From a virus (taxonomy: Duplodnaviria > Heunggongvirae > Uroviricota > Caudoviricetes), in IMG/VR virus record IMGVR_UViG_2551306525_000009: 36,183 nucleotides of DNA; one strand, written 5' to 3'. Positions 3,779-32,350 of this stretch are shown piece after piece (positions within the stretch are counted from its first letter, which is position 1; the number at the start of each line of letters is the position of its first letter). The notes beneath the pieces are model-generated. The model was given only the letters and a program-made list of their open reading frames with translations. It ran no database searches and was not told where the DNA came from. The position numbers and the translations under genes are program-made.

Positions 3779-4144
3779 ATGAAAGAGACGAAAAACATCG
3801 ATACCGAAAACACGGTAGTTGCTGACACTGTGAAAGAAACCAGTGAGCGTGGCGTAAAACTTACCCAACCCATTGAGCGAGGCGGCGAAAAAATCATGTA
3901 TGTGGAGATCACCGGGGCTATTGAGCAGGCTGGATCTCTGCGAGATTTGTCGCTGTCTGATGTGCTGAATCTGAAAGCGGAATCCATGTTTACGCTGCTG
4001 TCACGCGTGACATCACCGCGACTGGATGAAGTGACGATCAAAAAAATGGCATCCCGTGACTTTATTCAGTTATGTGTGGTTGCCGTAAATTTTTTGAGCG
4101 GTGCGGACTCTGGCGGGAAGAACGAACAGGCGACGGAAGCCTGA
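3779..4144 (+). CDS. E: tail assembly chaperone E
   Basis: 121 aa ORF between tube and tape measure; contains slippery heptamer near its 3' end. Confidence 0.8.
   Translation: MKETKNIDTENTVVADTVKETSERGVKLTQPIERGGEKIMYVEITGAIEQAGSLRDLSLSDVLNLKAESMFTLLSRVTSPRLDEVTIKKMASRDFIQLCVVAVNFLSGADSGGKNEQATEA
4090..4096 (+). other. programmed -1 ribosomal frameshift slippery heptamer T_TTT_TTG
   Basis: heptamer in the zero frame of E (codons TTT TTG); the -1 frame stays open to 4308. Confidence 0.7.
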
Positions 4145-8284: not shown

Positions 8285-8312
8285 TTATCTAAAACCTCGG
8301 TTTGCAGGAAAC
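8285..8312 (+). repeat. left inversion crossover site (gix/hix-like) TTATCTAAAACCTCGGTTTGCAGGAAAC
   Basis: 26/28 match to the inverted copy at 11235-11262; resembles Gin/Hin crossover sites (from memory). Confidence 0.75.
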
Positions 8313-9198
8313 AGTAAACAAGGCTGGTAACGCCGTTCAGCGTTCCGGCGATAAAATGACCGGAGAGCTGAAAATTGGCACGGTGAATGCGCTGCGAATT
8401 TTCAATGATGCCTTCGGTCTTATTTTCCGTCGTTCAGAAGATTTTCTTCATTTCATTCCGACGGCTGAAGGACAAGGCGAAAACGGTGATATCGGCCCAT
8501 TAAGGCCATTCGCTATAAATCTGAGAACAGGTGCTATATCTGTCAGCCACGGGGCCAAAATTGAAGGAGGTCTAGCTATTGGAGCTACTGATAACGCACT
8601 GGGTGAAAACTCCATTGTTCTGGGAGATAACGACACCGGATTTAGGCAAGATGGAGATGGTATTATTAGCTTCTATTCAAATGGTTCGCGCATCGGACAT
8701 ATTGATGAGTTAGGGTTACATATTTATAAAGATATTGAATCTAATGGCAGCAATTTTAGATTAAAAGGTAATTACCGCCACCACATTACATTCGCCAACG
8801 AAGACGGAAGTATTCGTATGTTTTTGTGGAAAGATAAAGATGGTGATGGTGTTCATATTAATAATGGTTCAAGCGGTGGCGGTGATTTCGTTTTTAAAAC
8901 AGATGGGGGATTTGCGCTGGGAAGTGGTGCGCAAGTTGCGTCTAATGGCGATATTTATGGTTCAGTGTGGGAAAACAACTGGTTAAGCACATGGCTGCAT
9001 AATCATGTCGTTCGGGATATTCGTCTTGGCAGCATTGAATATAAAAACGTATGGCGCGACTCCGGCTTTGGCGATGCGTCAGGTTATGTTTTAACAGCCG
9101 CAATTAACAGCAATGCGGATGATATTGTCGACACTGTTGCCAGAAGGCCAATTCAGAAATTGATTGGGGGAATATGGTATAACGTGGGGAGTGTTTAA
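8302..9198 (+). CDS. alternative tail fibre C-terminal cassette (Sv'-like), no own start codon in the current orientation
   Basis: frame open through left gix site; begins LGLQETVNK..., same junction as H (LGLQETVNQ); C-terminus [19 protein letters not shown] parallels the H C-terminus. Confidence 0.75.
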
Positions 9199-9199
9199 G

Positions 9200-9727
9200 A
9201 TGATGCACCTGAAAAATATTAAGGCCGGGAATCCGAAAACACCGGAACAATACCAGCTAACTAAAAAAGCGGGCGTGGTATGGCTCTTTTGTGAAGATGG
9301 CAAAAACTGGTATGAGGAACAAAAGAATTTTCAGCCAGACACCATAAAAATTGCTTACGATGAGAACAACATCATCGTTGCTGTCAGTAAAGACGTTTCA
9401 ACTATTAATCCTGAAGGGCTAAGCATAGTTGAAGTTCCTGATATTACGGCAAATCGTCGCGCAGACAATAACGGAAAATGGATGTTTCTGGATGGTAAAG
9501 TAGTAAAGAGGGAATATACAGAACAGGAACTGCAACAACAGGCCGAATCACAAAAGGCCGCATTGCTTTCCGAAGCTGAATCAGTCATCCAGCCGCTGGA
9601 ACGCGCTGTCAGGCTGAATATGGCAACAGACGAGGAACGCACACGACTGGAAGCATGGGAACGCTACAGTGTTCTGGTCAGCCGTGTGGATACGGCAAAT
9701 CCTGAATGGCCACAAAAGCCTGAATAA
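9200..9727 (+). CDS. alternative tail fibre assembly chaperone (Tfa')
   Basis: [14 protein letters not shown]... paralogous to the Tfa at 9756..10289; ATG 1 nt after the Sv' stop. Confidence 0.8.
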
Positions 9728-9732
9728 AAATT

Positions 9733-9752
9733 AAGGCCCGATATCGGGCCTT
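9733..9752. terminator. bidirectional hairpin between the convergent tfa genes (AAGGCCCGAT/ATCGGGCCTT)
   Basis: perfect 20-bp palindrome read directly. Confidence 0.6.
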
Positions 9753-9755
9753 CTC

Positions 9756-10289
9756 TCATTCTGGTTGTTCGGGAAACGTTACTGGCAGGCTGGAAGTGTC
9801 TGTAGATTCGACTTTCTGCGCAAAGAGCATCCACTCTGTTAATTTTTGTTTATTCTCGTCGGAAATGATGCCCAGCCGTAGCTGTGAGTCCCATAGCTGG
9901 GTTTTATCCCTGACAAGTTGCAACAGGCTTTGCTTTTCATTTTCCGCTTGTTGCCTCTGCTCTTCCTCGGTACAAGTTCGCTTTATCACTACGCCATCTT
10001 TGAACATCCATTTCCCCGAAATATCAGCCCGGCGATTTGCTGTAATATCAGGTAATTCAACGACGCTTGCCCCCTCTGGATTAATTGCTGAAACATCCTT
10101 TTCAATGCAAATAATAACGCCGTTATGGTCATAGACCATTTTCAAAGTGTCTGGCTGGAAATTCTTTTGTTCCTCATACCAGTTTTTTCCATCATCTGAA
10201 TAAAGCCACTTAATGTTAAATTGCTTTGTTAGCTGGTACTGCTCCACTGTTTTAGGATTACCAGCGGTAATGTTTTTTAAGTGCATCAT
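9756..10289 (-). CDS. G: tail fibre assembly chaperone
   Basis: 177 aa, MMHLKNITAGNPKTVEQYQLT...; immediately downstream of the fibre gene. Confidence 0.85.
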   Translation of the reverse strand: MMHLKNITAGNPKTVEQYQLTKQFNIKWLYSDDGKNWYEEQKNFQPDTLKMVYDHNGVIICIEKDVSAINPEGASVVELPDITANRRADISGKWMFKDGVVIKRTCTEEEQRQQAENEKQSLLQLVRDKTQLWDSQLRLGIISDENKQKLTEWMLFAQKVESTDTSSLPVTFPEQPE

Positions 10290-10291
10290 AA

Positions 10292-12394
10292 TTAAATACT
10301 TCCCGCGTTATACCAAGTCCCATTAATGCAATACTGAATTGGCCTTGCCTGAGTTGTATCAATTAATTCATCACGGTTTCCGTTAACTGAACCCGTAACG
10401 ACATAACCTGACCTGTCAGACCAGCCGGGACCATTCCATGTCTGAACAGATGACAGACCGCCAAGGCGAATACCTGTAATAAACCTTGAGTTACATTCTG
10501 CCTGCGTATATGCACCAACATCTCCCGCAGAGGGTTTGCGGGTTGTGGTGTAAAACTCTGACCAGTCAGCTTCAAAGCCATAACCATCACGCGCTGAACG
10601 ATAAAAGATACCGCCATTTCTGTAATTCACGCGGAACTGTGCAGCAGGGCAACTCCCCGTATTCATATTGAAGTGGAGGATTAATGTCGATGCGCCACCA
10701 ATATTTGCGTTATAGACCCCGCTATTCCAGTTCCAGCCAACAGCTTTATCATTTCCGACAGTGCTTCCTGTTTGCCCTAAAGCAAATGCAGGTTGTTGAT
10801 TTTTCGTGTTGTAGTCTCGTCGCCAGCCAGGAGCATAAGCATCACCATGATTAATATAAGTGAATTGAGCGTTAGTAATTCCGCCACCGCTGGACGTGCT
10901 CGGCGTAGTAACGCGTATGGTCATTGCGCCGCGAGTGCCAATAACTTCCACCACAGCACCTGCAAGACAAATATTTCCGCAACCTGTATCTGTAATGACC
11001 TTATTATTTGCATAAGCCCATGAGCCTTTGCACATCCAGTAAGGATGGTTAAATGCTCCCTGACTCTCCAGCCACGAAATAAATTGCGCGGTTGTCCAGA
11101 CCTGACTATCGCCACCAATATTCAGCCATGAGCTATATGCGCGGCAGGCACCAATATTTTTGGTGAAGGTATCTTTTCCTGGAATATCTGCGCCGTTCTG
11201 GTTTTTCTGTAATGCGCCAGAAGCCTGATTTACCGTTTCCTGCAAACCGAGGTATTCGATAACGGCAGCAACGTTCGATTTCGCAAGAATATCCCGCCCG
11301 ACTTTTGTCAGGGTTGCCAGGCTGGCGACATCATTCCCCGTAAAATACGGAAACTTGTCTGCCGCAGTAGCAAGCCCGGCCAGCGCCGTCAGGGTGGCAT
11401 CTTTCGGTTGCTTACCCGCAAGCGCGTTAGTCATGGTGGTCGCAAAATTCGGGTCGTTGCCCAGCGCCGCCGCCAGCTCGTTCAGCGTGTTCAGTGCGTC
11501 AGGTGAAGAGTCTACAAGTGCGGCAATCGCGGCCATAACGAAAGCCGTGCTTGCGATTTGGGTATTATTCGTTCCCTGTTGTGCAGTTGGTGTTGTTGGC
11601 GTTCCGGTCAGTGCCGGGCTGTTTAATGGGGCTTTCTTGTTCGTTTCATCCATTACCGCCTTAACTGCTTTTGGTGTCGCTGCCAGCGTTTCAGACGTGC
11701 TGTTGGTTGCACTGCTGAGCTGGACTATCCCTTTTCGTGCCGTCGTGGCGTCCTGAGCGGTATATTTTCCGTTAGCCAGGTCATACGCGGCCTTAACCGC
11801 TTTCGGCGTTGCGGCCAGCGTTTCAGAATCGCTGTTAGTGGCGCTACTGAGTTGAACAAAGCCTTTTGCGGTCAGCGAGGCGTCCGGGTGACGTCGTGAC
11901 TGTTCATGCTCTTTCAGTTTGTCATCCACGTAATCCACTGTGGCCATCACCATGGTGTTATCCACGGTAAGCGCCACGGTGGCAGTGCTGGATACGGTCA
12001 GAATGGTGCGAAATGTTTGTGCACGACCGGACCCTTCGGCAACGGCTGGCTTGTAACTTTCGGCAGTATTGCCCACCGCGATTAAATCGCCGTGCTCATC
12101 AAATACACCAATTTCCCGGATCCAGAATCCGCCCGTTTCAGGAGGAATAACCAGCTCCGCAATAATGCGGTTCTGATGTGTTGCGTCCAGGATGACGCGA
12201 TTAACAGTGTGTCGCCACACCTCATGCACCAGACGGGTCTGCTTACTGTCTGGTGTGGGCAACGTGCCGCCACCGTCGCCCACGGCCATATGAGTCAGGC
12301 GGACAGGCTTACCATCTGGCGCGGCTGCCTGAGCTAATTTTTTTGCACCCGTATCGGTGATAACGGTTTTAAATTTTCGTGTTGTGGTACTCAT
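10292..12394 (-). CDS. H: tail fibre protein (constant N-terminal part fused to the currently expressed variable C-terminal part)
   Basis: 700 aa; gix-like site embedded at the constant/variable junction (11235-11262). Confidence 0.85.
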   Translation of the reverse strand: MSTTTRKFKTVITDTGAKKLAQAAAPDGKPVRLTHMAVGDGGGTLPTPDSKQTRLVHEVWRHTVNRVILDATHQNRIIAELVIPPETGGFWIREIGVFDEHGDLIAVGNTAESYKPAVAEGSGRAQTFRTILTVSSTATVALTVDNTMVMATVDYVDDKLKEHEQSRRHPDASLTAKGFVQLSSATNSDSETLAATPKAVKAAYDLANGKYTAQDATTARKGIVQLSSATNSTSETLAATPKAVKAVMDETNKKAPLNSPALTGTPTTPTAQQGTNNTQIASTAFVMAAIAALVDSSPDALNTLNELAAALGNDPNFATTMTNALAGKQPKDATLTALAGLATAADKFPYFTGNDVASLATLTKVGRDILAKSNVAAVIEYLGLQETVNQASGALQKNQNGADIPGKDTFTKNIGACRAYSSWLNIGGDSQVWTTAQFISWLESQGAFNHPYWMCKGSWAYANNKVITDTGCGNICLAGAVVEVIGTRGAMTIRVTTPSTSSGGGITNAQFTYINHGDAYAPGWRRDYNTKNQQPAFALGQTGSTVGNDKAVGWNWNSGVYNANIGGASTLILHFNMNTGSCPAAQFRVNYRNGGIFYRSARDGYGFEADWSEFYTTTRKPSAGDVGAYTQAECNSRFITGIRLGGLSSVQTWNGPGWSDRSGYVVTGSVNGNRDELIDTTQARPIQYCINGTWYNAGSI
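11235..11262 (-). repeat. right inversion crossover site (gix/hix-like), reverse complement TTATCGAATACCTCGGTTTGCAGGAAAC
   Basis: inverted copy of the site at 8285-8312; lies inside the H reading frame at LGLQETVN. Confidence 0.75.
11658..11867. repeat. imperfect tandem duplication (period ~132 bp, 44 aa) within the constant part of the fibre gene
   Basis: GCCTTAAC(T/C)GCTTT...CCAGCGTTTCAGA... occurs twice; encodes the repeated VQLSSATNS.SETLAATPKAVKA motif. Confidence 0.6.
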
Positions 12395-22556: not shown

Positions 22557-23602
22557 TGAGCAGAAAAAATAAAAAAGTGCGCATGAGTTCACGCATTGAT
22601 CTCGCTGATGCGCTCAGGAAAGAATCATCGCTCAGTGCATTCACATTTGATGGTCCTTATCGCCTGACCGGGCATGACCTGCTGGACAATATGTACTGTG
22701 CTGATAACGGGCGGTGGTATGAAACCCCGGTGGACTGGTACGGTCTGGCAAGAGCCGCCCGGCAAACGTCCTGGCATCAGTCTGCGCTTTACTTTAAGCG
22801 CAATGTATTGCTCGGTTGCTACATCCCGCACCCGCTGCTTTCCCGGCAGGATTTCTCGGCGCTGGCGCTGGACTGGTTTGTGTTCGGTAACGCATTCCTT
22901 GAGCTTCGAAGCAATATGCTCAGCGAACCGCTAAAATTACGGCACGCCCTGGCGAAATACATGCGACGCGGAAGCGATCTTGAATCATGGTGGTATGTGC
23001 AGGATGGCAAGGATGCGTTTCAGTTTCGCCCAGGCAAAGTGTGCCACCTGATGAATCCGGATATTAACCAGGAAATCTACGGCATGCCGGAATATCTCGG
23101 CGCATTACTCTCGGCCAGCCTGTCTCATTCGGCGGACATGTTCAGAAAACTGTATTACGACAACGGATCCCACGCCGGGTGCATCATCTACATCGGTGCA
23201 GCGCAGGTAAACCGCGAAAGCATGGACTCCCTGAAAGAAACGCTACAGGGTGCGCGTGGTGGTGGTGCGTTTAAAAACGTGCTCATTCATGCGCCCAACG
23301 GGGGCAAAGAGGGGGTGCAAATTTTGCCGTTCCAGCAGATCACCGCAAAGGATGAGTTCATGAATGTTAAGGCGGCATCCCGTGATGATGTGCTGGCTGC
23401 GCACCGCGTTCCGCCGCAACTGATGGGGGCGATGCCGGGTGAAAAAAGTGCGTTTGGTGATGTGGAGAAGGCCGCGCGGGTTTACGCAATTAACGAGCTG
23501 ATGCCCGTCATGGAGGCCATGAAGCACATCAATGACTGGCTTGGCGAAGAGGTGATCCGCTTTAACCCTTATGCACTGCTGGACACCCAGCCCACATCCT
23601 GA
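22556..23602 (+). CDS. Q: portal protein Q
   Basis: 348 aa; start overlaps P stop (TGATG). Confidence 0.85.
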   Translation: MSRKNKKVRMSSRIDLADALRKESSLSAFTFDGPYRLTGHDLLDNMYCADNGRWYETPVDWYGLARAARQTSWHQSALYFKRNVLLGCYIPHPLLSRQDFSALALDWFVFGNAFLELRSNMLSEPLKLRHALAKYMRRGSDLESWWYVQDGKDAFQFRPGKVCHLMNPDINQEIYGMPEYLGALLSASLSHSADMFRKLYYDNGSHAGCIIYIGAAQVNRESMDSLKETLQGARGGGAFKNVLIHAPNGGKEGVQILPFQQITAKDEFMNVKAASRDDVLAAHRVPPQLMGAMPGEKSAFGDVEKAARVYAINELMPVMEAMKHINDWLGEEVIRFNPYALLDTQPTS

Positions 23603-23629
23603 CGCGCTTCGCTTGTCTGCTGCTTCGCC

Positions 23630-23652
23630 GGGGCATAAAAAATTTATGCCCC
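23630..23652. other. hairpin 28 bp after Q (GGGGCATAAA-aaa-TTTATGCCCC)
   Basis: 10-bp perfect stem read directly; no U-tract, function unknown. Confidence 0.4.
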
Positions 23653-23932
23653 GACTCTCCAGCTCCTGTATCAGTCAGATAATTTCACGACGCTTTCCTG
23701 CTTATTGCCATCATCGACGGTCAGATTCTTACGCAATCCCACCGCGTTAACTGCATGTTCTCGCCGCCTCAGTGCGATTTTGACGGCCTTACCTTTCACC
23801 CCATCAAATCAAAAGCCCTCACGTCTTTTTCACGCTCAGCGTGAGAAATACAGCCATTCTGTTGTGTTGCTGCGACATCGTTCAGGGGATGCTATTTACC
23901 CCCTGAAACGCGGGCTGTTCCCCCGTCACCTG

Positions 23933-23956
23933 CGCGCAGAAAAAGCGCGTTTTTTT
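23933..23956 (+). terminator. rho-independent terminator (CGCGC-agaaaaa-GCGCG followed by T7)
   Basis: GC stem plus seven T read directly; could stop read-through from the P-Q operon. Confidence 0.5.
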
Positions 23957-24026
23957 GTGCACGCACGGATCCTTGACGGATCCAGCCGCCATGCGGGCCG
24001 GAAGGGTAAAAAGTCGTTCAAAAAAA

Positions 24027-24053
24027 TTGTGCAAATTTGTGCACTATTGTGCA
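24027..24053. repeat. three direct TTGTGCA repeats at 10-bp phasing (TTGTGCAAAT TTGTGCACTA TTGTGCAAC)
   Basis: read directly; helical-turn spacing suggests a protein-binding array. Confidence 0.5.
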
Positions 24054-24070
24054 ACAGAGAAAGAAGGCCA

Positions 24071-24102
24071 GGAAGAAAGAAAAGCCGCCTTCAAAAGGCA
24101 GC
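24071..24102 (-). terminator. rho-independent terminator closing the leftward accessory operon
   Basis: minus strand reads GCTGCCTT-ttga-AGGCGGC then TTTTCTTTCTTCC, 43 nt after the 24145 stop. Confidence 0.6.
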
Positions 24103-24144
24103 TTTTCAGATTAGTAAGGGATTGATAGATAGTCGTCGCAAAAC

Positions 24145-24525
24145 TCAAAAAGAAGACTGGAACTCTTCTGCTCTGCGCTCAATTTCTGCCATGTAGGATG
24201 TACGGGCTAACTCATGCGCATTGGGTGTCATAATGCTGATTAGCTGATACTTATCTGGATATAAGAAATGGCGGGAGTAAACAAGATAACTGTTTGATTT
24301 ACGCGAGGCGGCAGGTAGCTTTGCAGGCCACGGCTGTTCATCAGGTAAACGAATGTGAATCTTAAAAACAAAAGAATCACGAAGACGCCCGCTATCTTCC
24401 CACTGCCCTTCGTTGCCAAAGACTGAGGGTAAAGATCCGCCGTTTTTCCATGACTGCAAAGCATGTGCATATTTGCGAGCAACTGCGGGGAGTTCTATGT
24501 CATTGTGGACAGAGACTTTAATCAT
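24145..24525 (-). CDS. YafO-like toxin-domain protein
   Basis: 126 aa; C-terminal LISIMTPNAHELAR...AEEF resembles E. coli YafO (LIAILKPEPHKLAR...AEAF, from memory); also SLPSVFG vs VLPDIFG and SYLVYS vs AHLVYC. Confidence 0.5.
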   Translation of the reverse strand: MIKVSVHNDIELPAVARKYAHALQSWKNGGSLPSVFGNEGQWEDSGRLRDSFVFKIHIRLPDEQPWPAKLPAASRKSNSYLVYSRHFLYPDKYQLISIMTPNAHELARTSYMAEIERRAEEFQSSF

Positions 24526-24534
24526 GGCCCTGCC

Positions 24535-25128
24535 TTAATGGAACGTTGGATCTTTAAGGCCCAGCTTTTTATGTTCACTGCGGATAAGTGCGCGAACCTG
24601 ATCGGCGGTAACACCCAGATCAGCATCTGAAGTTTTCTTCGGCACATGCGTGCTTTCAATGAAGGATAAAATATCTTCAATCGTATAGCGGAGCGTCGCA
24701 GCGGAACGAGCAAAAGCGACAATCTCTTTTCTCAGTTCCGCGTTACTTTCAGGTACGCTTTTCAGCGCAACCCTTGCAGCCTCGACAAAACTTGCACATA
24801 CCGCAATATGACGGAAAAGGCTTTCAAACCCTTCCTGAGTCTCTTTTTTCTGATTTTTCAGAATAATAGGGATCTGCTTTTCTTCCCATTCGATGCGAAG
24901 GTTTGCCCTGTGTGTCTTCATCCTATCAGCCAGGTTAAGCATATAACTGGTGGCCTCATCAATAGGAAGGTATGCCACAGAATCCTTTACGTCCTGGAGG
25001 GATAGCGTAGACGTACTGTGCCGGGAGATTGATAAGTCATGATGCACAATGCTACTGGCAGGAACAGGGGCGAGAGCCACCGCCAGCGCTGCGGCCATAG
25101 ATGTTATTTTATTTTTTTTACTGCTCAT
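24535..25128 (-). CDS. hypothetical protein, 197 aa, N-terminus resembles a signal peptide or TM anchor (MSSKKNKITSMAAALAVALAPVPASS)
   Basis: ORF with GGAAAGG RBS; 9 nt upstream of the YafO-like gene; not recognisable as YafN/RelB-type antitoxin. Confidence 0.55.
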   Translation of the reverse strand: MSSKKNKITSMAAALAVALAPVPASSIVHHDLSISRHSTSTLSLQDVKDSVAYLPIDEATSYMLNLADRMKTHRANLRIEWEEKQIPIILKNQKKETQEGFESLFRHIAVCASFVEAARVALKSVPESNAELRKEIVAFARSAATLRYTIEDILSFIESTHVPKKTSDADLGVTADQVRALIRSEHKKLGLKDPTFH

Positions 25129-25217
25129 AATTGCCTTTCCTGCCAATAATCGTGAACCACTGCCGGAATGATAGCGCAAAAAATCACCCGCTGAAACGAA
25201 TTATCCTTGCGGCAAAA

Positions 25218-25304
25218 CTAGCCCGCGTCAACCTCATACCACGCCAGCGTCGATTGATAGTTTTGTGCCGCCTCGCGTAATGCCTGATAGTCAATTTTGC
25301 TCAC
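25218..25304 (-). CDS. putative 28-aa micro-ORF (VSKIDYQALREAAQNYQSTLAWYEVDAG), GTG start overlapping upstream stop
   Basis: AGGAGG 7 nt upstream of GTG; GTGA overlap with stop of the 174-aa gene; identified manually. Confidence 0.3.
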   Translation of the reverse strand: MSKIDYQALREAAQNYQSTLAWYEVDAG

Positions 25305-25825
25305 TGGTTGCCTCCTTTGTGTTGCGTCAGCTCTTCCTGCGCCTGCATCATGCGATTGACCTGAATGCGTGTGCGTCGAACGGCAAAATTAAATTGAAAC
25401 ATGAGCCGGAACATTTCTGAGGCTTCCGTGTGAGCATCATGGAGAGGTGACAGGCGGTACAGTTCTGCCTCCGTAGCTTGTTGAATCAATGACAGATCAA
25501 ATTGAAGTGCGGGTCTGGTACATTTTGCACTTCTGGCAGCAAGCTCCGGCATCAGTTTCTTAACGAAGGTGTTTTGCACCGCTTTGTTGAGTTGTGTCTG
25601 CATCCAAATCGCAAATTTCAGCGAACGCATAAGTTTGATAGCCTCGGGCAGCGGCAGATAGATCATGCTGGTAGATTTGGGTGGTTGGTGAATCATCTTC
25701 ACGGATACGCGATTTCGCAGCGTTCGGAAAATCGTGTTCCCAACAACAGCTTCTACGGATACAGGACAGGGAGCCAGACCAGCCCGCAGTGCTTCTTTCA
25801 TTGGCATGTATTCGTATTTTTTCAT
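25301..25825 (-). CDS. hypothetical protein, 174 aa
   Basis: ORF with GAGGA RBS; no family recognised. Confidence 0.55.
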   Translation of the reverse strand: MKKYEYMPMKEALRAGLAPCPVSVEAVVGNTIFRTLRNRVSVKMIHQPPKSTSMIYLPLPEAIKLMRSLKFAIWMQTQLNKAVQNTFVKKLMPELAARSAKCTRPALQFDLSLIQQATEAELYRLSPLHDAHTEASEMFRLMFQFNFAVRRTRIQVNRMMQAQEELTQHKGGNQ

Positions 25826-25885
25826 CGTGTTTTCCTCGTGCGGGGCGACAGTGCACCCCGATAAAATTAAAAGCCGTCAAATTCG

Positions 25886-26221
25886 TCATTCATGCGTTTT
25901 TTCTTCATGGTCTGTCACTTCTCCCCTGATAATTTCATTGCACAAATCCACGCACTCATTGCAGATGTAAACAGACGGTCCGGCAATCACCTTTATGACT
26001 TCGTGCTGGGATTTATTGCAGAAGCTGCAATAAATCGTCTTCTTGCCTGAAGTCCATGTTTTGCTGATTTCGCCAGACATCAGTTGCTTGATGTCTTTTT
26101 CACGACGAAGAACTATCTGGCCACATTCAGCTATTTTTTGGATGTTGACATTTTCTTCTTTCGCCAGCGCTTCCATTCGCTCAATCAGTCGCTGCGCTTT
26201 TTCTCTGTCAATGTGTTGCAT
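25886..26221 (-). CDS. small protein with ClpX-type C4 zinc-binding domain (ZBD) at its C-terminus
   Basis: [39 protein letters not shown] is near-identical to the E. coli ClpX N-terminal ZBD ([39 protein letters not shown], from memory); GGGGG RBS. Confidence 0.8.
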
Positions 26222-26255
26222 TGTGTCCCCCTTGTTTATGTTCCCGGATTAAAGT

Positions 26256-26279
26256 CATCAGGGCGGATGCGCCCTGATG
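26256..26279. other. hairpin between parR and the ClpX-ZBD gene (CATCAGGGCG-gatg-CGCCCTGATG)
   Basis: perfect 10-bp stem read directly; may separate transcription units or stabilise mRNA. Confidence 0.45.
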
Positions 26280-26284
26280 TTGTG

Positions 26285-26596
26285 TTATTCGGGAAATAAC
26301 GCCCGGATATTTCTGGCCATCTGACTGGTTATCTGTGCGGTTGATACTGGCTGTGACGCGGGGCGTTCTGTCCTGGTTTGTGTCACCGATAACGCCTCAT
26401 CGTCAGCCCATGCAGCCAGTCGGTAAGCCTCTGCCGGATTCATTTTCAGAAGTGCCAGCCCGGCCAGAAAAGCCACGCGTTGGCCGCTTTTGCGGGCTTC
26501 TGGTGTAAGGCTGTCCAGCCAGGCGCATGCTTCGCCTTCGTTCTTGACGGCGGCGGGCTTCAGATAGAAACTTATCCGTCTGGTTGGTGTCGTCAT
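26285..26596 (-). CDS. parR: ParR-like ribbon-helix-helix centromere-binding protein
   Basis: RRISFYLKP...LDSLTPEARKSGQRVAFLAGLALLKMNP...IRALFPE parallels plasmid R1 ParR (from memory); AGGAG RBS. Confidence 0.7.
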   Translation of the reverse strand: MTTPTRRISFYLKPAAVKNEGEACAWLDSLTPEARKSGQRVAFLAGLALLKMNPAEAYRLAAWADDEALSVTQTRTERPASQPVSTAQITSQMARNIRALFPE

Positions 26597-26600
26597 TGGT

Positions 26601-27560
26601 TTACTCCTTGTCCATTGCGTACAGCCCATTAACCAGAGCAAACTGTGGCACCCCGTCCGCGATGAAAGTCGCATTAACTCCGCAGGCTTCGCGGATAGCG
26701 GGTGCCACAATCTCCGCCCCTCCACCGACAACCATCACCCGCCCGTAACCCGAAAAACCCGCCAGCGCGCGGATCACGCGTTGTTTCAGTGTTTCTTCCT
26801 TTTCACGAATAACCTCCATCAGGCTGGCGTAATGCGCGTCATTGTGGATGTGCTGGCGCAGCCAGGCTTCATTATGGCGATGTTCGATAATGGTATTGGC
26901 GATGTGGTGACTGGTGCGCATACCGTTAGTGGCCATCACCGACAGTACGGCATCGGCCATCAGAGAAACGCCTACGTGTGGATCGCAAAACACCTGGCTG
27001 ATACCTGCCAGTTGCCCCTGAACCTTTGCCACATCCAGCGTGGTTCCGCCCAAATCTACAATCAGCAGGGATTCAAACGGACTCATGTCAGCCAGTGCCT
27101 TAAAGCCAGCCGGAATGGATTCAGGCATAACCCGCACGTTACGGATAGTGAATGCTTCGCCGTTCTGGTACTCCACCGGGCGCATAACGTTCGCTTTTTT
27201 GCGGTTGATGTTGGCCATGTCCGGCTGTGCGTTTGTGTCGAAATACTCGCTCAGTGGCAGGGTGACAACCACATCCACCTCCTGTGGCGTGATGCCTGAT
27301 TTGACCAGCGCGTGATGAATGGCAATGACATTCACATCGCTGTACTGGTATTGCGTGTCGGTCGTCTGGACAAAGCGATCGCTGACCGGATCAAAACCAT
27401 AGCGCACGCCATCAAGCATGTAGTTCGCAGGCTGCGAGCCACCGAACGGCGCAGACCATTCCGACTTGAAGCTGTTCGGGCTGATGGCGTTGCGGCGTTC
27501 GCCGTTCTCAGTCCATGCCAGCTTGATGTTGGTGGAGCCGTCGTCGATACAAATTTTCAT
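26601..27560 (-). CDS. parM: ParM/StbA-family actin-like segregation ATPase
   Basis: MKICIDDGSTNIKL (phosphate-1), LIVDLGGTTLDV (phosphate-2), VVGGGAEIV (adenosine) motifs; 319 aa. Confidence 0.8.
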   Translation of the reverse strand: MKICIDDGSTNIKLAWTENGERRNAISPNSFKSEWSAPFGGSQPANYMLDGVRYGFDPVSDRFVQTTDTQYQYSDVNVIAIHHALVKSGITPQEVDVVVTLPLSEYFDTNAQPDMANINRKKANVMRPVEYQNGEAFTIRNVRVMPESIPAGFKALADMSPFESLLIVDLGGTTLDVAKVQGQLAGISQVFCDPHVGVSLMADAVLSVMATNGMRTSHHIANTIIEHRHNEAWLRQHIHNDAHYASLMEVIREKEETLKQRVIRALAGFSGYGRVMVVGGGAEIVAPAIREACGVNATFIADGVPQFALVNGLYAMDKE

Positions 27561-27596
27561 GTCGCTTTTCCTTATGTTGATTAATTAATCGTTTAC

Positions 27597-27627
27597 GGGA
27601 TTCTGAAATCCCGTTTTTGCCTGTTTT
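27597..27627. repeat. repeat unit 1: GGGATTctgaAATCCCGTTTTTGCCTGTTTT (internal 6-bp palindrome), between parM start and A stop
   Basis: read directly; second near-identical copy 74 bp away. Confidence 0.6.
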
Positions 27628-30463
27628 ATGCGCGCTTCATATATCGCGGCGCGTTTTTTTGCTCATTTATGGGATTTGTGAATCCCGTTTCTGTCTGTTT
27701 TTTGTTTCCACTGGTCAGGCCACCCCGCAGCAGGTCTGCTTTGCGGCGGGCGCGTTCAGTGGTTTCACTGATTCTCTGTGCGTGCTCTGCGTCGCGGATG
27801 GCGCGCAGCATGTCAGAAAGCACGGTAACGGGTGTTTTCATGGTGTTCTGGTCCTGCTGAAGTGTGGATGCCAGGCGTGCGGCGGCTTCAGGGTCTGATG
27901 CCCCCAGCTGTGCCAGATAGCTGGCGACCGGGTTATGGCGGATCTCCGTGCTGCTTACATCGTGATTACGGCTCAGGCGCTGCCAGAGCTGCGTGATTCG
28001 GCTGTCCGGGCGGGTATCCGGTTTGCGTACAATTTCAAATCCCTGCGGTGCAATGATGCTGCCGTCAACGTACAGACTGCCGCCCCGTAACAGGTGCTGC
28101 ATCTGTTGTTCACCGATATGCAGGCCAAGGGATTCAGCAGACTCCCGCCATTCTTTAGCGAGTAATTCGTGGTTATCAGGCAAAGGCCGCTGCTGTTTGC
28201 GGCTCTGTGTCCAGCTCTGCATTTCATCACTGTTGTTTTTTGCCTGTTTGTCACGCAGCGAACGCATCAGCGCCCGGCGTTCGTGCCGTTTCAGTGAGTG
28301 CAGCCATTCGTTCACTTCAACACCGTCAGGGATCTGCGGCCACGGTGCTGGCCGTTCTTCCGGCTGTTCTGTCCCGTTGTTGTCCGTTTCCTGTACACGG
28401 GGACAGTTATTGCCACGAGTCCAAGGGGCGGCAGGGCCGCCCTGAAGGTCAAAACCATTTTCGCGGGCGCTGTCTTCCGCTTCCGGTTTACGTCTTACCA
28501 GCTTCCAGTTATCCGGATGCGTGCACACACGGGAGGATTCCCCGATGAGTGGTGACCAGATCCCGTAAATCTGTACGCTCTGTTCGCCGTAATCGTTCAG
28601 CTCATCGGCGAGGTCGTAGGCGGTGCGAATCAGGTAGTCCTTGCGTGGAACAAGTACGCCGCCCTGTTTCTCTATATAGGTGGCAAAACATCCGGCATCA
28701 GCGGCAGCGAGTACCGCATCCATTGCGTCATCCTTCAGCCGTTGCGGGCCTTCCGGGTTGCGTGCCATCTGGCTGGCAAGGCGGCGGAGTTCACGCCACA
28801 CCTGACGGGAGGGGATGCCAAAGAACTGGAACTGGCGGACCCGGTGAAGGCGCGCCCAGCCGATGGCGCGCTCCACGCTCTCGGCCATTGATTTTCCGGT
28901 TTCGTGGTCAACGCGTGGTTTGCCCGTTTTCGGGTCGATGCCATCCACGGCGCGGCTGTCCAGGTTCTTTCCGATGTAGGTGGCGATGTAGCTGGTTGGC
29001 GTGCCTTTTGAGCCGTCTACATACTCCGCCTTAAAGCGCGGAGTAATATCATCACCCAGCTCGTGACGATCTTCCTGAATGGCAATATCGCGGGTGTGGG
29101 ACACAATGGTGTCGATTTCTTCCGGATGGGCAAAGACCATCATATGCCAGTGTACGGTGCCGTCATGGTGAGGCTCCACCGTGCGGATGCCATACCAGCG
29201 CAGGCCGTCGCGGTTCAGTTTTTTGCGGACCGCCGCAAAAAACGTGTTAACCAGGTAGTCGCTGGAGTCGCGCATGGTGGCCCCGTTCCATTTGGGGTTC
29301 GGATGACCGTTCTCCGTTGTTGCGTGGTATTTTGACGGGCAGGTGACAGTCAGAAACACCGCTTTGTCACCACGGGCTTCGGCCAGAAGTTCCAGCCCCT
29401 TCATGGTGGCCATCATTTCTGCCTTACGGTGAACCGGGTTACTTACTCCCGCGTAATACACTGTCTCGAGATCAATCGTGAACCCGTCTTCGTTTTCCAG
29501 CATGAAACTTTTCAGGAAATCGCGTGTTTTCTCGCGCTGTGCGCGAAACTCGCTTAACGCGTCCTGGCTCAGATAAGGCGATGTTTTTCTGGAAACCAGA
29601 CAGGCGGCGCGGAGTTGTTCTTCTCTCCACTCGCAACGTAACAGCCACAGTTTGCGTTTCCACCAGTCCGCACAGGTCAGGCGAAGGATTGCGCCCGGCA
29701 GCAGTTCCGTATCCGGTTCGCTCTTGTTCAGGGCTTCGTAATGTGGCGGCATGATGTGCAGGCGTAATGCGATACGAGCCAGCATCCGGTAAGCCTTCAA
29801 CATTACATCCATGGTCAGCTCGCCATCTCTGGCACCAAAGCCATCGCAGAGTGTTTCGAAGGTGCTGCTGAACATCGCCGCGGTCATGGTGGCCAGCGTC
29901 TGTATCTGGTGCTTGTTGAGCTGCGGCAGGTAAAGCAAATCGTCCAGGCGTTCGCGCCCGGCAAGGGAGCGATAACCCGGTGTCAGCCAGCGTCCGTCAG
30001 TGCGATCCAGACGTTCGAATATTTTGCGCAGGGGTCCGCGTGCATAGCGTTCCGCCTGCCAGCTCTTTTTACCTTTCTGGCGATCGGCTTCCTGTTTTTT
30101 GCGCAGGAAAGAGAGGTGGCGGCTCAGTGGTTCACGCAGATAAACAGGTAGTGCCTTTAGTGTGGCAAAGGCACGGGCTACCGGGTCTTGTTCTGTTGCC
30201 CGGCGCTTACTGATGATGCTCTGTGCCAGCTTTTCACGCTGTCCGGCTTCCTCAAGGGATGCCATGAGTTTTTTACCCATGGCGGATTGTGCGAAAAAGG
30301 CTTCTTCCTTCGCTTCCTGTTCTTCCTGTGCCCTTTTGTCCGCCTCAAGGTAGTAACGGATGGCGCGTTGCAGGTCGGTTTCAGTTTCCTGCCTGCGCTC
30401 CGTAAATCTGGCCGGATCAATGGCTGGCCGTGGTTCATTCCAGCTCCATGCAAACTCGCTCAT
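27626..30463 (-). CDS. A: replication initiation protein A (rolling-circle initiator, P2 gpA family)
   Basis: TVTCPSKYH, VEPHHDGTVHWHMMVF and YIATYIGKN active-site blocks as in P2/186 gpA; start either ATG 30463 (ATGA-coupled) or GTG 30490. Confidence 0.85.
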   Translation of the reverse strand: MSEFAWSWNEPRPAIDPARFTERRQETETDLQRAIRYYLEADKRAQEEQEAKEEAFFAQSAMGKKLMASLEEAGQREKLAQSIISKRRATEQDPVARAFATLKALPVYLREPLSRHLSFLRKKQEADRQKGKKSWQAERYARGPLRKIFERLDRTDGRWLTPGYRSLAGRERLDDLLYLPQLNKHQIQTLATMTAAMFSSTFETLCDGFGARDGELTMDVMLKAYRMLARIALRLHIMPPHYEALNKSEPDTELLPGAILRLTCADWWKRKLWLLRCEWREEQLRAACLVSRKTSPYLSQDALSEFRAQREKTRDFLKSFMLENEDGFTIDLETVYYAGVSNPVHRKAEMMATMKGLELLAEARGDKAVFLTVTCPSKYHATTENGHPNPKWNGATMRDSSDYLVNTFFAAVRKKLNRDGLRWYGIRTVEPHHDGTVHWHMMVFAHPEEIDTIVSHTRDIAIQEDRHELGDDITPRFKAEYVDGSKGTPTSYIATYIGKNLDSRAVDGIDPKTGKPRVDHETGKSMAESVERAIGWARLHRVRQFQFFGIPSRQVWRELRRLASQMARNPEGPQRLKDDAMDAVLAAADAGCFATYIEKQGGVLVPRKDYLIRTAYDLADELNDYGEQSVQIYGIWSPLIGESSRVCTHPDNWKLVRRKPEAEDSARENGFDLQGGPAAPWTRGNNCPRVQETDNNGTEQPEERPAPWPQIPDGVEVNEWLHSLKRHERRALMRSLRDKQAKNNSDEMQSWTQSRKQQRPLPDNHELLAKEWRESAESLGLHIGEQQMQHLLRGGSLYVDGSIIAPQGFEIVRKPDTRPDSRITQLWQRLSRNHDVSSTEIRHNPVASYLAQLGASDPEAAARLASTLQQDQNTMKTPVTVLSDMLRAIRDAEHAQRISETTERARRKADLLRGGLTSGNKKQTETGFTNPINEQKNAPRYMKRA
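27671..27701. repeat. repeat unit 2: GGGATTtgtgAATCCCGTTTCTGTCTGTTTT, inside the 3' coding end of gene A
   Basis: read directly; candidate parC-like centromere/operator or part of the replication origin. Confidence 0.6.
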
Positions 30464-30849
30464 GGCTGGTATCCCGTCACGCGCTGCCACTCCTGCGAGA
30501 AGATGGCGGAAAGGCGGTTAAATTCAGCGGTGTATTCACTCAGCGAGGCACACCCGCCAGCAGTGCGATGCGCCAGCATTGCCGCGAATACGGAGGCCGG
30601 GGAGTCGTAATACGCCAGCAGTGATTCGCCGTGTGGTGTCAGGCAGTGCAACGCCAGCCCGTGTGGTGTGAAGTCCACGCGGTAGCAGTCGTCTACTGTG
30701 AAATAAAGGGTGTCCGCATTCTCCGGTTTTGTAGTGCGTGCTCTGTTGTCACGACCACGGATGTAAAGATCAAATAATCCCTGAAGAACGGGAGCCAGAC
30801 GGGTGTCCTGTGTGCGCACCCATCTTGTGAAGTCATGAGCGTCAATCAT
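30460..30849 (-). CDS. hypothetical protein, 129 aa, stop overlapping A start
   Basis: ORF translationally coupled to A. Confidence 0.5.
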   Translation of the reverse strand: MIDAHDFTRWVRTQDTRLAPVLQGLFDLYIRGRDNRARTTKPENADTLYFTVDDCYRVDFTPHGLALHCLTPHGESLLAYYDSPASVFAAMLAHRTAGGCASLSEYTAEFNRLSAIFSQEWQRVTGYQP

Positions 30850-30921
30850 GCTGCAATTCTCTTTACTACAGATGTGCGAAGGCCTCCCGCCGCAAGGTGC
30901 AGGAAAGGCCCGGAACAGGAA

Positions 30922-31152
30922 TTAATGGAGTTTGTTTTGCTGCTGGATGAGCTGCTGAAGCTCGCGCAGATCATCCGCCAGATAGCTGAAAACAGCGGAT
31001 GAATAGAGGTTTGAAAGTTCGCAGCTACGCTCATGCAGCATATTGATGTGCATGATTTTAGCGACGCGGAATGCGCGGGAAAGTCTGCGGTTGATTTCAG
31101 TCTGGATGTGACGACGCTCCGCGATAGCGCGGTGCTGTTTGCGGTTTGCCAT
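30922..31152 (-). CDS. hypothetical basic small protein, 76 aa
   Basis: ORF with possible GAGG RBS; Arg/Lys-rich N-terminus. Confidence 0.4.
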   Translation of the reverse strand: MANRKQHRAIAERRHIQTEINRRLSRAFRVAKIMHINMLHERSCELSNLYSSAVFSYLADDLRELQQLIQQQNKLH

Positions 31153-31162
31153 GGTGTGGCCT

Positions 31163-31366
31163 CGTGTATAGTAAGTTTTGAAAACTCACCATCCAGAGGT
31201 GGAAAACTCGGGGTGGTGAGACGTACAGGGTTTCCACAACCGGCTATACACGAACCCGGCCCGACCGAAGTCGGCCCCATACGCCCCACCATAATTCTGA
31301 CGCGAAAAAGACGTGGCGATACGGTACGCACAAAAAAACCGCTGGCGCGGTTGTGCGCGTGTATAG
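31163..31366 (-). ncRNA. candidate cis-regulatory RNA region: 9-mer CGTGTATAG at 31163 and 31358 with its complement CTATACACG at 31244
   Basis: three copies read directly, allowing mutually exclusive pairings; located in the 5' UTR of the 76-aa ORF within a 367-bp non-coding gap. Confidence 0.3.
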
Positions 31367-31491
31367 TCAGCGGGGTGGAAATCCCGGCACCCGTTTTATG
31401 AGGTGCAGCGGAAATGTAACCTGACTGATTGCGGCATGGCAAGCGGTTTTTTTGTGAGAACGGCATACTAAAAAATCCTGATGCTGCTCCG

Positions 31492-31519: not shown

Positions 31520-32350
31520 TTACTTCACCGGAACAAACGGAACAGCGGTATTACTGGTCATGTATTGCGGCAGCGTGCCGTTCCATTTGTTGATAGCTTC
31601 CAGCTCCATAACGCCGGGGTTCTGGCGCAGAGCTTCACCGCGCAAACGAATGGCGTCGGCTTCAGCCTGGGCTTTTGTGCGAATGGCATCAGCCTGTCCG
31701 GCTGCTTCTGCGCGTAGCATGTTGGCTTCTGCTTCGCGCTGCTTGACTTCCTGTTCGCGTTGCAGAGTTTTCTGGTTTGCCGTGACTTTGGCATTAATGC
31801 TGTCGATAACGGTTGGTGGGTATTCCGGTTTACCGACATAAGAGAGGCTCATTACCTGAATGCCGATAGGTGTCATTTCTGCCTGAATGTCTTTAAGTGC
31901 TGAATCCAGCAGTTCAGACTTGCCACCGTCGATAAATTTATCGGTGGTCATTTTACTGGCCAGTCGGTTGAGTGCGTCGGCGATCTTCTGGCGCAGGTCA
32001 GTGTCGGTAATGTCATCCACGCCTTTGCGGTAGGTCTGAAACACTGTAGTAACTTTGGATGGATCAACCTTGTAGGCCACACCGATGTGATAGCCGATGG
32101 TTGTGCCGTCACTCATCTGAAAGCTGAACGGCTCATCGTAGGTCTTCATTTGTTTGAAGGTTGGGAAGATGTAAACCTCTGTATTCCAGCCTGTCCAGTA
32201 GCGGCCAACGCCAACCACTTCACCGACGCCTTTGTCGTCGCCCAGTTTGTTGACTTTGATGCCCACATTACCTGGCTCAACGCGATCGCAACCAACCAGC
32301 AGGATGGCAGCAAAAAGCGGGAGAATCTGAAAGAGTTTGAATCTCTTCAT
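31520..32350 (-). CDS. SPFH/band-7 (stomatin/HflK/C-like) lipoprotein
   Basis: lipobox LLVGC after signal peptide; SPFH-like core then Ala/Glu/Arg-rich coiled-coil tail (EADAIRLRGEALRQNPGVMELEAINKW), assigned by sequence character. Confidence 0.65.
   Translation of the reverse strand: MKRFKLFQILPLFAAILLVGCDRVEPGNVGIKVNKLGDDKGVGEVVGVGRYWTGWNTEVYIFPTFKQMKTYDEPFSFQMSDGTTIGYHIGVAYKVDPSKVTTVFQTYRKGVDDITDTDLRQKIADALNRLASKMTTDKFIDGGKSELLDSALKDIQAEMTPIGIQVMSLSYVGKPEYPPTVIDSINAKVTANQKTLQREQEVKQREAEANMLRAEAAGQADAIRTKAQAEADAIRLRGEALRQNPGVMELEAINKWNGTLPQYMTSNTAVPFVPVK

Follow-up and report, generated by a model that had tools for sequence, protein, structure and literature searches.

The gpA-to-cos interval of a P2-family prophage genome (IMG/VR record IMGVR_UViG_2551306525_000009, 36,183 nt; hereafter the window) is, judged by comparison with its relatives, composed of at least four independently exchanged modules and not of one system. 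One of these modules is a mobile two-gene cassette that encodes a 197-amino acid (aa) protein and a YafO-family protein and has the layout of a toxin-antitoxin pair. We estimate the probability of this account as a whole, the mosaic together with the toxin module, at about 0.6.

The gpA-to-cos interval and its modules

Based on nucleotide comparison, the window can be assigned to a P88-like (Xuanwuvirus, P2-family) Escherichia coli prophage, with positions 24058-27704 as its gpA-to-cos cargo hotspot. The flanks and the partition genes parMR match Escherichia phage P88 and its relatives (Xuanwuvirus, Peduoviridae) at 95-97%. ORF calling found seven minus-strand open reading frames (ORFs) in the interval, and the co-oriented genes described in a first-pass annotation of the window are real and correctly named, with minus-strand ORFs at exactly the coordinates given there. 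The gene encoding the gpA replication endonuclease (27626-30490) is located on the same strand upstream of parM, and the cos region with the plus-strand portal and terminase genes flanks the opposite side. The annotation had placed the block between gpA and portal Q at cos, where P2-like prophages exchange cargo, and this position is indeed a documented diversity hotspot of the P2 family, with 18,150 occurrences of the gpA-gpQ locus (Rousset et al. 2022, PMC9122126). A 4.1-kb query was partially matched in 1481 of 5426 complete E. coli genomes (parMR, gpA and the portal flanks), whereas ≥ 80% of the query was covered in only seven of them.

The four genes downstream of parMR have a G+C content of 0.43-0.49, compared to 0.54-0.57 for the terminase, portal and gpA genes. 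The impression, formed by eye in the annotation, that the block is lower in G+C than its flanks holds for 24058-26283, to which the low G+C is confined, but not for parM (0.552) and parR (0.561), which are core-like.

BLASTN breakpoints were located at 24057/24058, 25272/25273, 25892/25893 and 26283/26284, and four related loci carry different combinations of the genes (Table 1). L001 is an E. coli locus (CDE6306) with 99.7% identity over the queried region. In this locus, the gene encoding the ClpX zinc-binding-domain (ClpX-ZBD) protein (3793-3981) is called a pseudogene with an internal stop by the Prokaryotic Genome Annotation Pipeline (PGAP), and the YafO pair is intact. In addition, gpA is annotated as frameshifted in both L001 (5538-7101) and L003 (4367-5430). 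Decay may be under way in some of these prophages, with the YafO pair still intact.

Table 1 Gene content of four related loci
Locus	ClpX-ZBD gene	174-aa gene	ead/Ea22	197-aa + YafO pair
L001	present (annotated pseudogene)	present	remnant	present
L002	absent	present	remnant	present
L003	present	present	full-length, 174 aa	absent
L004	absent	present	full-length, 196 aa	absent

The annotation had treated the block as a single accessory island. In its strongest form, this idea would make the six genes one co-functioning system, with antitoxin proteolysis tuned by the ClpX-ZBD protein and a regulatory role for the 174-aa protein. The genes are co-oriented with short gaps, and no strong internal promoter was called (a sigma-70 consensus scan of 23500-27900 called 0 promoters). 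The P1 antitoxin Phd is a ClpXP substrate, a precedent that makes an effect of a zinc-binding-domain decoy on a toxin-antitoxin module plausible. However, every module is found without the others in close relatives, the YafO pair is present in 19 other loci without the other four genes, and in L001 the pair is intact next to a ClpX-ZBD pseudogene with an internal stop. We rejected a single six-gene system largely because the presence/absence patterns separate the modules, as relatives occur with or without the ClpX-ZBD gene and the YafO cassette, and we consider it highly improbable.

The boundary between the cassette and its neighbor is marked by a gene remnant. The 28-aa micro-ORF, which the annotation described as coupled to the 174-aa gene, turned out to be the N-terminal part of ead/Ea22. 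It aligns with positions 1-23 of 139 of the Pfam family Ead_Ea22 (PF13935; 1e-5, 26.6 bits versus a cut-off of 27), only its first ~24 codons are Ead-like, and PGAP labels it in L001 and L002 as a pseudogene that is 'incomplete, missing C-terminus'. In relatives, the 174-aa gene overlaps the start of full-length ead/Ea22 by GTGA (intact in L003 and L004). Homology to the loci with intact ead ends at 25273, short lambdoid-phage matches (89-94%) are found at 25261-25322, and the cassette stands in for 541-594 bp of ead/Ea22 compared to L003 and L004. The micro-ORF is what was left of ead/Ea22 after replacement of its body, with the 174-aa gene surviving. The 174-aa protein itself is an orphan with only eight homologue clusters, in E. 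coli and Shigella, and without matches in Pfam, PHROG, NCBIfam or PADLOC.

The position and the exchange of cassettes between related phages are shared with P2 old/tin and with validated gpA-gpQ cargo, but a sequence or domain relation to OLD or to PADLOC models was not detected. The annotation's remark that nothing here is old-like is borne out: an OLD-type domain was absent in Pfam searches of the seven proteins (tin was not searched for directly), and PADLOC-DB 2.0 gave 0 defence-model matches for the same proteins at E up to 0.1. In profile hidden Markov model searches, proposed in the annotation as a check, ParM, ParR, ClpX-ZBD and YafO were assigned to families and the 174-aa and 197-aa proteins were not. 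An Rfam search over the whole window returned no RNA families in this region.

The 197-aa/YafO cassette

In all 20 loci examined, a co-directional yafO-family gene (~126 aa) begins 1-12 nt downstream of the gene encoding the 197-aa partner protein. In the window, the yafO ATG is located 9 nt past the partner stop codon. Adjacency, co-directionality, tight spacing and co-inheritance are the generic features of type II toxin-antitoxin pairs, and they were found here in 20/20 loci and at least four kinds of context. Six further P2-like lineages carry the pair at the gpA-portal hotspot (Erwinia pyrifoliae, E. tracheiphila, Mixta, Izhakiella, Serratia marcescens and one Logan sequencing-run assembly), and it is also located at the integrase edge of P2/186-like prophages (Buttiauxella, Serratia and Klebsiella) and at the end of the tail-fibre genes (Salmonella and Serratia). 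Between rne and sbcB, one copy occupies a plain chromosomal site. All prevalence figures are minimum values, with a scan of genome contigs yielding at least six loci.

The stretch 23897-25237 has 90-95% DNA identity to P2-like prophages of Mixta, Izhakiella and Serratia, whereas gpA is only 30-38% identical there, which shows that the cassette has moved recently from one divergent phage to another. At one junction, conserved cos-proximal sequence serves as a shared anchor; the other junction, at 25237, lies inside ead. The G+C content of the cassette is 0.467 (24058-25272). When copies are compared, the toxin is consistently better conserved than the partner (81 versus 62%, 90 versus 78% and 61 versus 25% identity), as is usual for the toxin and antitoxin of such pairs.

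The cassette appears to be self-contained, since it comprises a candidate promoter block and a terminator (Table 2). In five of seven aligned loci from different genera, the sequence upstream of the partner gene is conserved in this block but not around it, and homology to more distant cassette copies starts at 25186-25196. The terminator that the annotation placed after yafO at 24071-24102 is present as a hairpin with a T-run at 24107-24079.

Table 2 Features of the gpA-to-cos interval discussed in the text (positions in the window)
Feature	Position	Strand	Description
Two-gene mobile cassette	24058-25237	-	candidate promoter, 197-aa partner, YafO-family toxin, terminator
Intrinsic-terminator-like hairpin	24079-24107	-	13 pairs + T-run; closes cassette, 3' of yafO
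YafO-family toxin, 126 aa (WP_000598767)	24145-24525	-	PF13957
197-aa partner (WP_000095653)	24535-25128	-	presumed antitoxin or sensor
Candidate cassette promoter	25168-25196	-	conserved block TTTTTTGCGCTATCAT; -10-like TATCAT 25173-25168; weak -35 ~25196-25190
28-aa micro-ORF	25218-25304	-	ead/Ea22 N-terminal remnant
174-aa protein gene	25301-25825	-	orphan
ClpX-ZBD protein, 111 aa	25886-26221	-	PF06689, 1.3e-17
Optional module, 391 bp	25893-26283	-	indel relative to other prophages
parR/stbB, 103 aa	26285-26596	-	partition adaptor; PF10784 Plasmid_stab_B, 1.6e-24
parM, 319 aa	26601-27560	-	actin-like plasmid segregation ATPase
Two 42-nt direct repeats	27589-27630 and 27663-27704	-	candidate ParR operator/centromere (parC-like)

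The downstream protein matches PF13957 at 95.5 bits (cut-off 25, E 2.3e-27) over profile positions 2-100 of 101. Its structure model is confident, the predicted fold matches RelE, HigB and YafQ, and residues K55, H57, R75, Y80, H86 and H104 are conserved; a PDB sequence search with the toxin gave 0 relatives. Based on the model, the YafO-family protein is a predicted RelE/HigB-fold RNase that would cleave mRNA and be toxic. YafO has been classed as a BECR-fold mRNase with an antitoxin-toxin gene order (PMC11980606).

A close known parallel is the type II toxin-antitoxin system yafNO of E. coli K-12. The window toxin shares PF13957 and 34% identity with K-12 YafO, with the His, Arg and Tyr residues aligned, and both systems combine a RelE-superfamily fold with a tightly coupled upstream gene (antitoxin-then-toxin order). 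In contrast, the upstream protein in the window is longer than YafN (197 versus 97 aa) and has an N-terminus resembling a signal peptide, and the K-12 genes reside in the SOS dinB operon (dinB-yafN-yafO-yafP) whereas the window pair is mobile prophage cargo. The toxin scored 59.4 bits against the PRK09885 YafO equivalog of NCBIfam (cut-off 153), and BLASTP found no similarity between the partner and YafN (E 49). The toxin is a member of the YafO Pfam family, but because both comparisons failed, the system is not yafNO proper.

We read the pair as a type-II-like toxin-antitoxin module because of its gene order, its adjacency and coupled spacing, its joint transfer and the fold of the toxin. As it is carried in prophage hotspots, a role in abortive infection or prophage addiction is plausible. 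The upstream 197-aa protein would hold the YafO RNase inactive, until the supply or location of this partner is upset by an invading phage or by prophage loss. Released YafO would then cleave mRNA and stop translation, with abortive infection or post-segregational killing as the outcome. For an actual anti-phage phenotype we would give somewhat less than even odds. For part of the region, the defence or maintenance role suggested in the annotation is still the best available guess, although the pair and parMR are already catalogued, as systems #123 and #1, respectively.

Several observations weigh against the toxin-antitoxin reading, and most of them concern the partner. No antitoxin family was found for it in Pfam, NCBIfam or PHROGs, and it had 0 matches overall in Pfam, PHROG, NCBIfam and PADLOC; when 21 members of its alignment were compared to Pfam at E up to 1, scattered chance matches only (CNTF, DUF4062) were obtained. 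It lacks a recognisable DNA-binding domain, an operator palindrome was not found, and with 197 aa it is twice as long as the usual antitoxin. If it is exported, the bulk of it would be periplasmic, apart from the cytoplasmic RNase. Moreover, P0110 (199 aa), a distant homologue without a hydrophobic N-terminus, is located directly after gpA in another P2-like hotspot, next to hicA/hicB and without yafO (L028 3001-3600; L029 241-840), so that an independent function of the partner fold is possible. The candidate cassette promoter was not called in the stricter sigma-70 scan. Finally, the region is catalogued, but a functional study of the pair was not found in the literature.

The partner belongs to a small family, with 23 homologue clusters that are all from Enterobacterales and 33 representatives among 1.84 billion proteins in an exhaustive profile search. 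Its structure model (predicted local distance difference test score 70.6) comprises 51 low-confidence N-terminal residues, a three-helix bundle (56-159) and a C-terminal helix (175-188), and structural matches were generic only. The C-terminal helix and tail are conserved (IRSEHKKLGL..P.F).

The N-terminus of the partner, MSSKKNK-ITSMAAALAVALAPVPA followed by SS after the apparent cleavage site, resembles a cleavable Sec signal peptide. It consists of a basic n-region and a ~15-residue Ala/Leu/Val-rich h-region (hydropathy peak 2.0), and positions -3 and -1 are occupied by Val and Ala, respectively. Among family members, P-V-x-A is nearly fixed and substitutions in the hydrophobic core are conservative, as would be typical of a Sec signal peptide. 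For this exact sequence, 'signal peptide: protein 1' is marked in Table S5B of Rousset et al. (2022, PMC9122126). The feature is not uniform: besides P0110, two other distant members deviate, as P0107 has a weaker hydrophobic region and P0103 has no basic n-region, yet the latter is paired with YafO.

The 197-aa protein could, on the other hand, be an exported periplasmic or envelope protein, for instance one acting in superinfection exclusion, with YafO controlled otherwise or only weakly active. The P1 protein Sim is an example of superinfection exclusion at DNA entry. The typical Sec layout with invariant cleavage-site residues and a conservative h-region, the signal peptide marked in the table of Rousset et al. 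and the P0110 homologue without a toxin gene all fit such a role. Nevertheless, the 1-12 nt adjacency in 20/20 loci and the divergence of the two genes in step with each other suggest that they are partners, either physically or in regulation. With its conserved basic and His residues intact, a RelE-fold RNase would need a neutraliser, for which no other co-travelling candidate is present, and P0103 is still paired with YafO despite its missing n-region. We therefore consider a pure envelope role unlikely.

Within the toxin-antitoxin reading, export could itself be the control. Secretion through Sec, and not Lon/Clp proteolysis, would deplete the antitoxin, or the partner would act as an envelope sensor, and YafO would be freed upon phage shut-off of host synthesis or upon disturbance of secretion or the membrane. 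We regard this as a speculative variant with a lower probability than the envelope role itself.

The seven-gene arrangement is already listed in the supplement of Rousset et al. (2022, PMC9122126), where five of the seven WP accessions equal those assigned by PGAP in L001; the ClpX-ZBD pseudogene of L001 carries no protein accession. In Table S5B of that supplement, the identical 197-aa/YafO pair appears as system #123 (24 occurrences). The main text, where the three active systems out of eight additionally cloned ones are the only ones named, does not include it, nor does the accessible part of the further supplementary files. A functional study of the pair was not found in literature on YafO and defence or anti-phage activity. 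Neither YafO nor ParM nor ClpX is mentioned in a 2026 preprint on P2/P4 hotspots, and in the accessible part of a Photorhabdus toxin-antitoxin paper, YafO appears only as a search family.

The partition and ClpX zinc-binding-domain modules

The gpA-proximal module encodes what can be classified from its protein families as an R1-type (type II) partition system. ParM matches the Pfam families StbA_N (2e-82) and the ParM C-terminal domain (4e-68), the R1 ParM structures (PDB 1mwk) over its full length (E 6e-93) and phrog_691 ('partition protein'). ParR matches phrog_2515 (2e-58), and a PDB sequence search with it gave 0 relatives. The parR ATG at 26596 lies 4 nt past the parM stop. In phage P88, ParR carries the RefSeq note 'recombinase', a likely mis-annotation that could propagate. 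A functional study of P88 parM was not found in the literature.

The annotation had counted parMR among the genes unrelated to the P2 core, but it is not idiosyncratic cargo. Plasmid_stab_B with StbA is system #1 of the hotspot (4592 of 18,150 loci; Rousset et al. 2022, Table S5B, PMC9122126), the same study notes a putative system for plasmid partitioning at this site in approximately one quarter of P2-like phages, and parMR accounts for part of the partial query matches in 1481/5426 genomes. It is the commonest occupant of the hotspot and part of the semi-conserved backbone of the lineage.

Like R1 parMRC (identical to StbA/StbB of R100), the module has ParM, a StbB-family ParR, the parM-parR order and repeats upstream of parM. 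It differs in residing in a P2-family phage genome, right after the replication gene, where one of the two 42-nt repeats lies in the 65-nt intergenic region and the centromere is putative. These repeats span the gpA stop codon directly upstream of parM, and each contains the palindrome ACGGGATT-N4-AATCCCGT. They are the sole centromere or operator candidates, and qualify as parC-like because of the 42-nt repeat and its position, and not because of the short palindrome. Two points count against a centromere: the palindrome pattern alone is not above chance (2 found versus 1.4 expected), and two palindromic repeats are unlike the iteron array of R1 parC, which consists of ten 11-bp iterons.

The parMR module would segregate the phage genome during any episomal phase, in line with the suggestion of Rousset et al. 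that it may permit plasmid maintenance (PMC9122126). The circular record L020 (NZ_CP148288.1, 34,461 bp), filed as a plasmid of E. coli, corresponds to an entire P88-like phage genome, in which scaffold, terminase, gpA and parMR genes are all present. It may be a real episomal phage-plasmid or an assembled replicative circle, and lends weak support to an episomal phase.

Taken together with the cassette, parMR invites the idea of a plasmid-style stability package for a part-time episomal phage, in which anti-phage defence is not the selected function. The pairing of partition with addiction is the classic arrangement of plasmid R1, and the circular 'plasmid' record of a P88-like genome with parMR and the plasmid maintenance proposed by Rousset et al. 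point in the same direction. The two modules are unlinked, however, as the query part with parMR and the flanks was matched in 1481 genomes versus seven for the whole arrangement. The pair is mostly found in P2-like prophages without a nearby ParM (0/20 loci with a ParM match), one copy is located at a plain chromosomal site, and the 'plasmid' record is possibly an assembled replicative circle. A joint stability function is thus improbable in our view, and we retain the toxin-antitoxin reading of the pair as a module separate from parMR.

The ClpX-ZBD protein is encoded by an optional module that is present in L001, L003 and P88 and absent in L002 and L004. It consists of a 58-aa helical N-terminus and a ClpX zinc-binding domain that matches the E. 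coli ClpX N-domain (1ovx) with an E of 5e-20. Identity to the host ClpX N-domain is ~78% over 46 residues, and the four Cys ligands are kept. The AAA+ module is absent, as only residues 60-108 match ClpX models (49 bits versus cut-offs of 359-371). In contrast to host ClpX, it is a stand-alone protein of 111 aa with a novel 58-aa N-terminus, and a role as unfoldase is impossible. It represents a captured host ClpX N-domain minus the ATPase, and could act as a decoy or modulator of substrate and adaptor recognition by ClpX, or have a dominant-negative effect. Given this resemblance, the protein may compete with the host domain for adaptors or substrates, or may pair with it. A study on phage ClpX-ZBD proteins was not found in the literature. 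In P88, the corresponding gene (L021 1830-2162, SF19_gp19) is annotated as 'carboxylate--amine ligase' in RefSeq, another likely mis-annotation that could propagate. At the edge of the ClpX-ZBD indel, a perfect palindrome with a 10-bp stem, CATCAGGGCG-N4-CGCCCTGATG, is found at 26256-26279, 5 nt past the parR stop, with a T-rich tail on the plus strand only.

Other loci in the window and implications of the cassette

Elsewhere in the window, Rfam identified a C4 antisense RNA (31209-31296, minus strand, 77 bits) and isrK (31332-31406, minus strand, 63.5 bits), within or beside a 206-aa Ash-family ORF (30846-31466). This combination points to a putative P1/P7-style antisense immunity element in the prophage early region. 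Among the early genes upstream of gpA, a 276-aa SPFH/Band-7 protein is encoded at 31520-32350 on the minus strand (PF01145, 7.6e-31), which is unusual cargo for a P2-like early operon. The lowest G+C content of the window (0.42-0.46) is found at 8300-10800. This stretch, which lies beside the 700-aa fibre gene, comprises an ORF for a gp37-like tail-fibre tip (8302-9198, plus strand) and two convergent tail-fibre assembly genes (9164-9727, plus strand; 9756-10289, minus strand), and looks like alternative or exchangeable host-range cassettes.

The gpA-to-cos interval of this prophage offers a base-resolved case of cargo swapping at a P2-family hotspot, and the cassette within it is a compact 1.2-kb unit that can be cloned as is. 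If its partner protein is not exported, the pair would be one more YafO-type module and ordinary catalogued hotspot cargo. If it is, an exported antitoxin or sensor would represent a toxin-antitoxin or abortive-infection logic not described so far, and a new way of arming a toxin.

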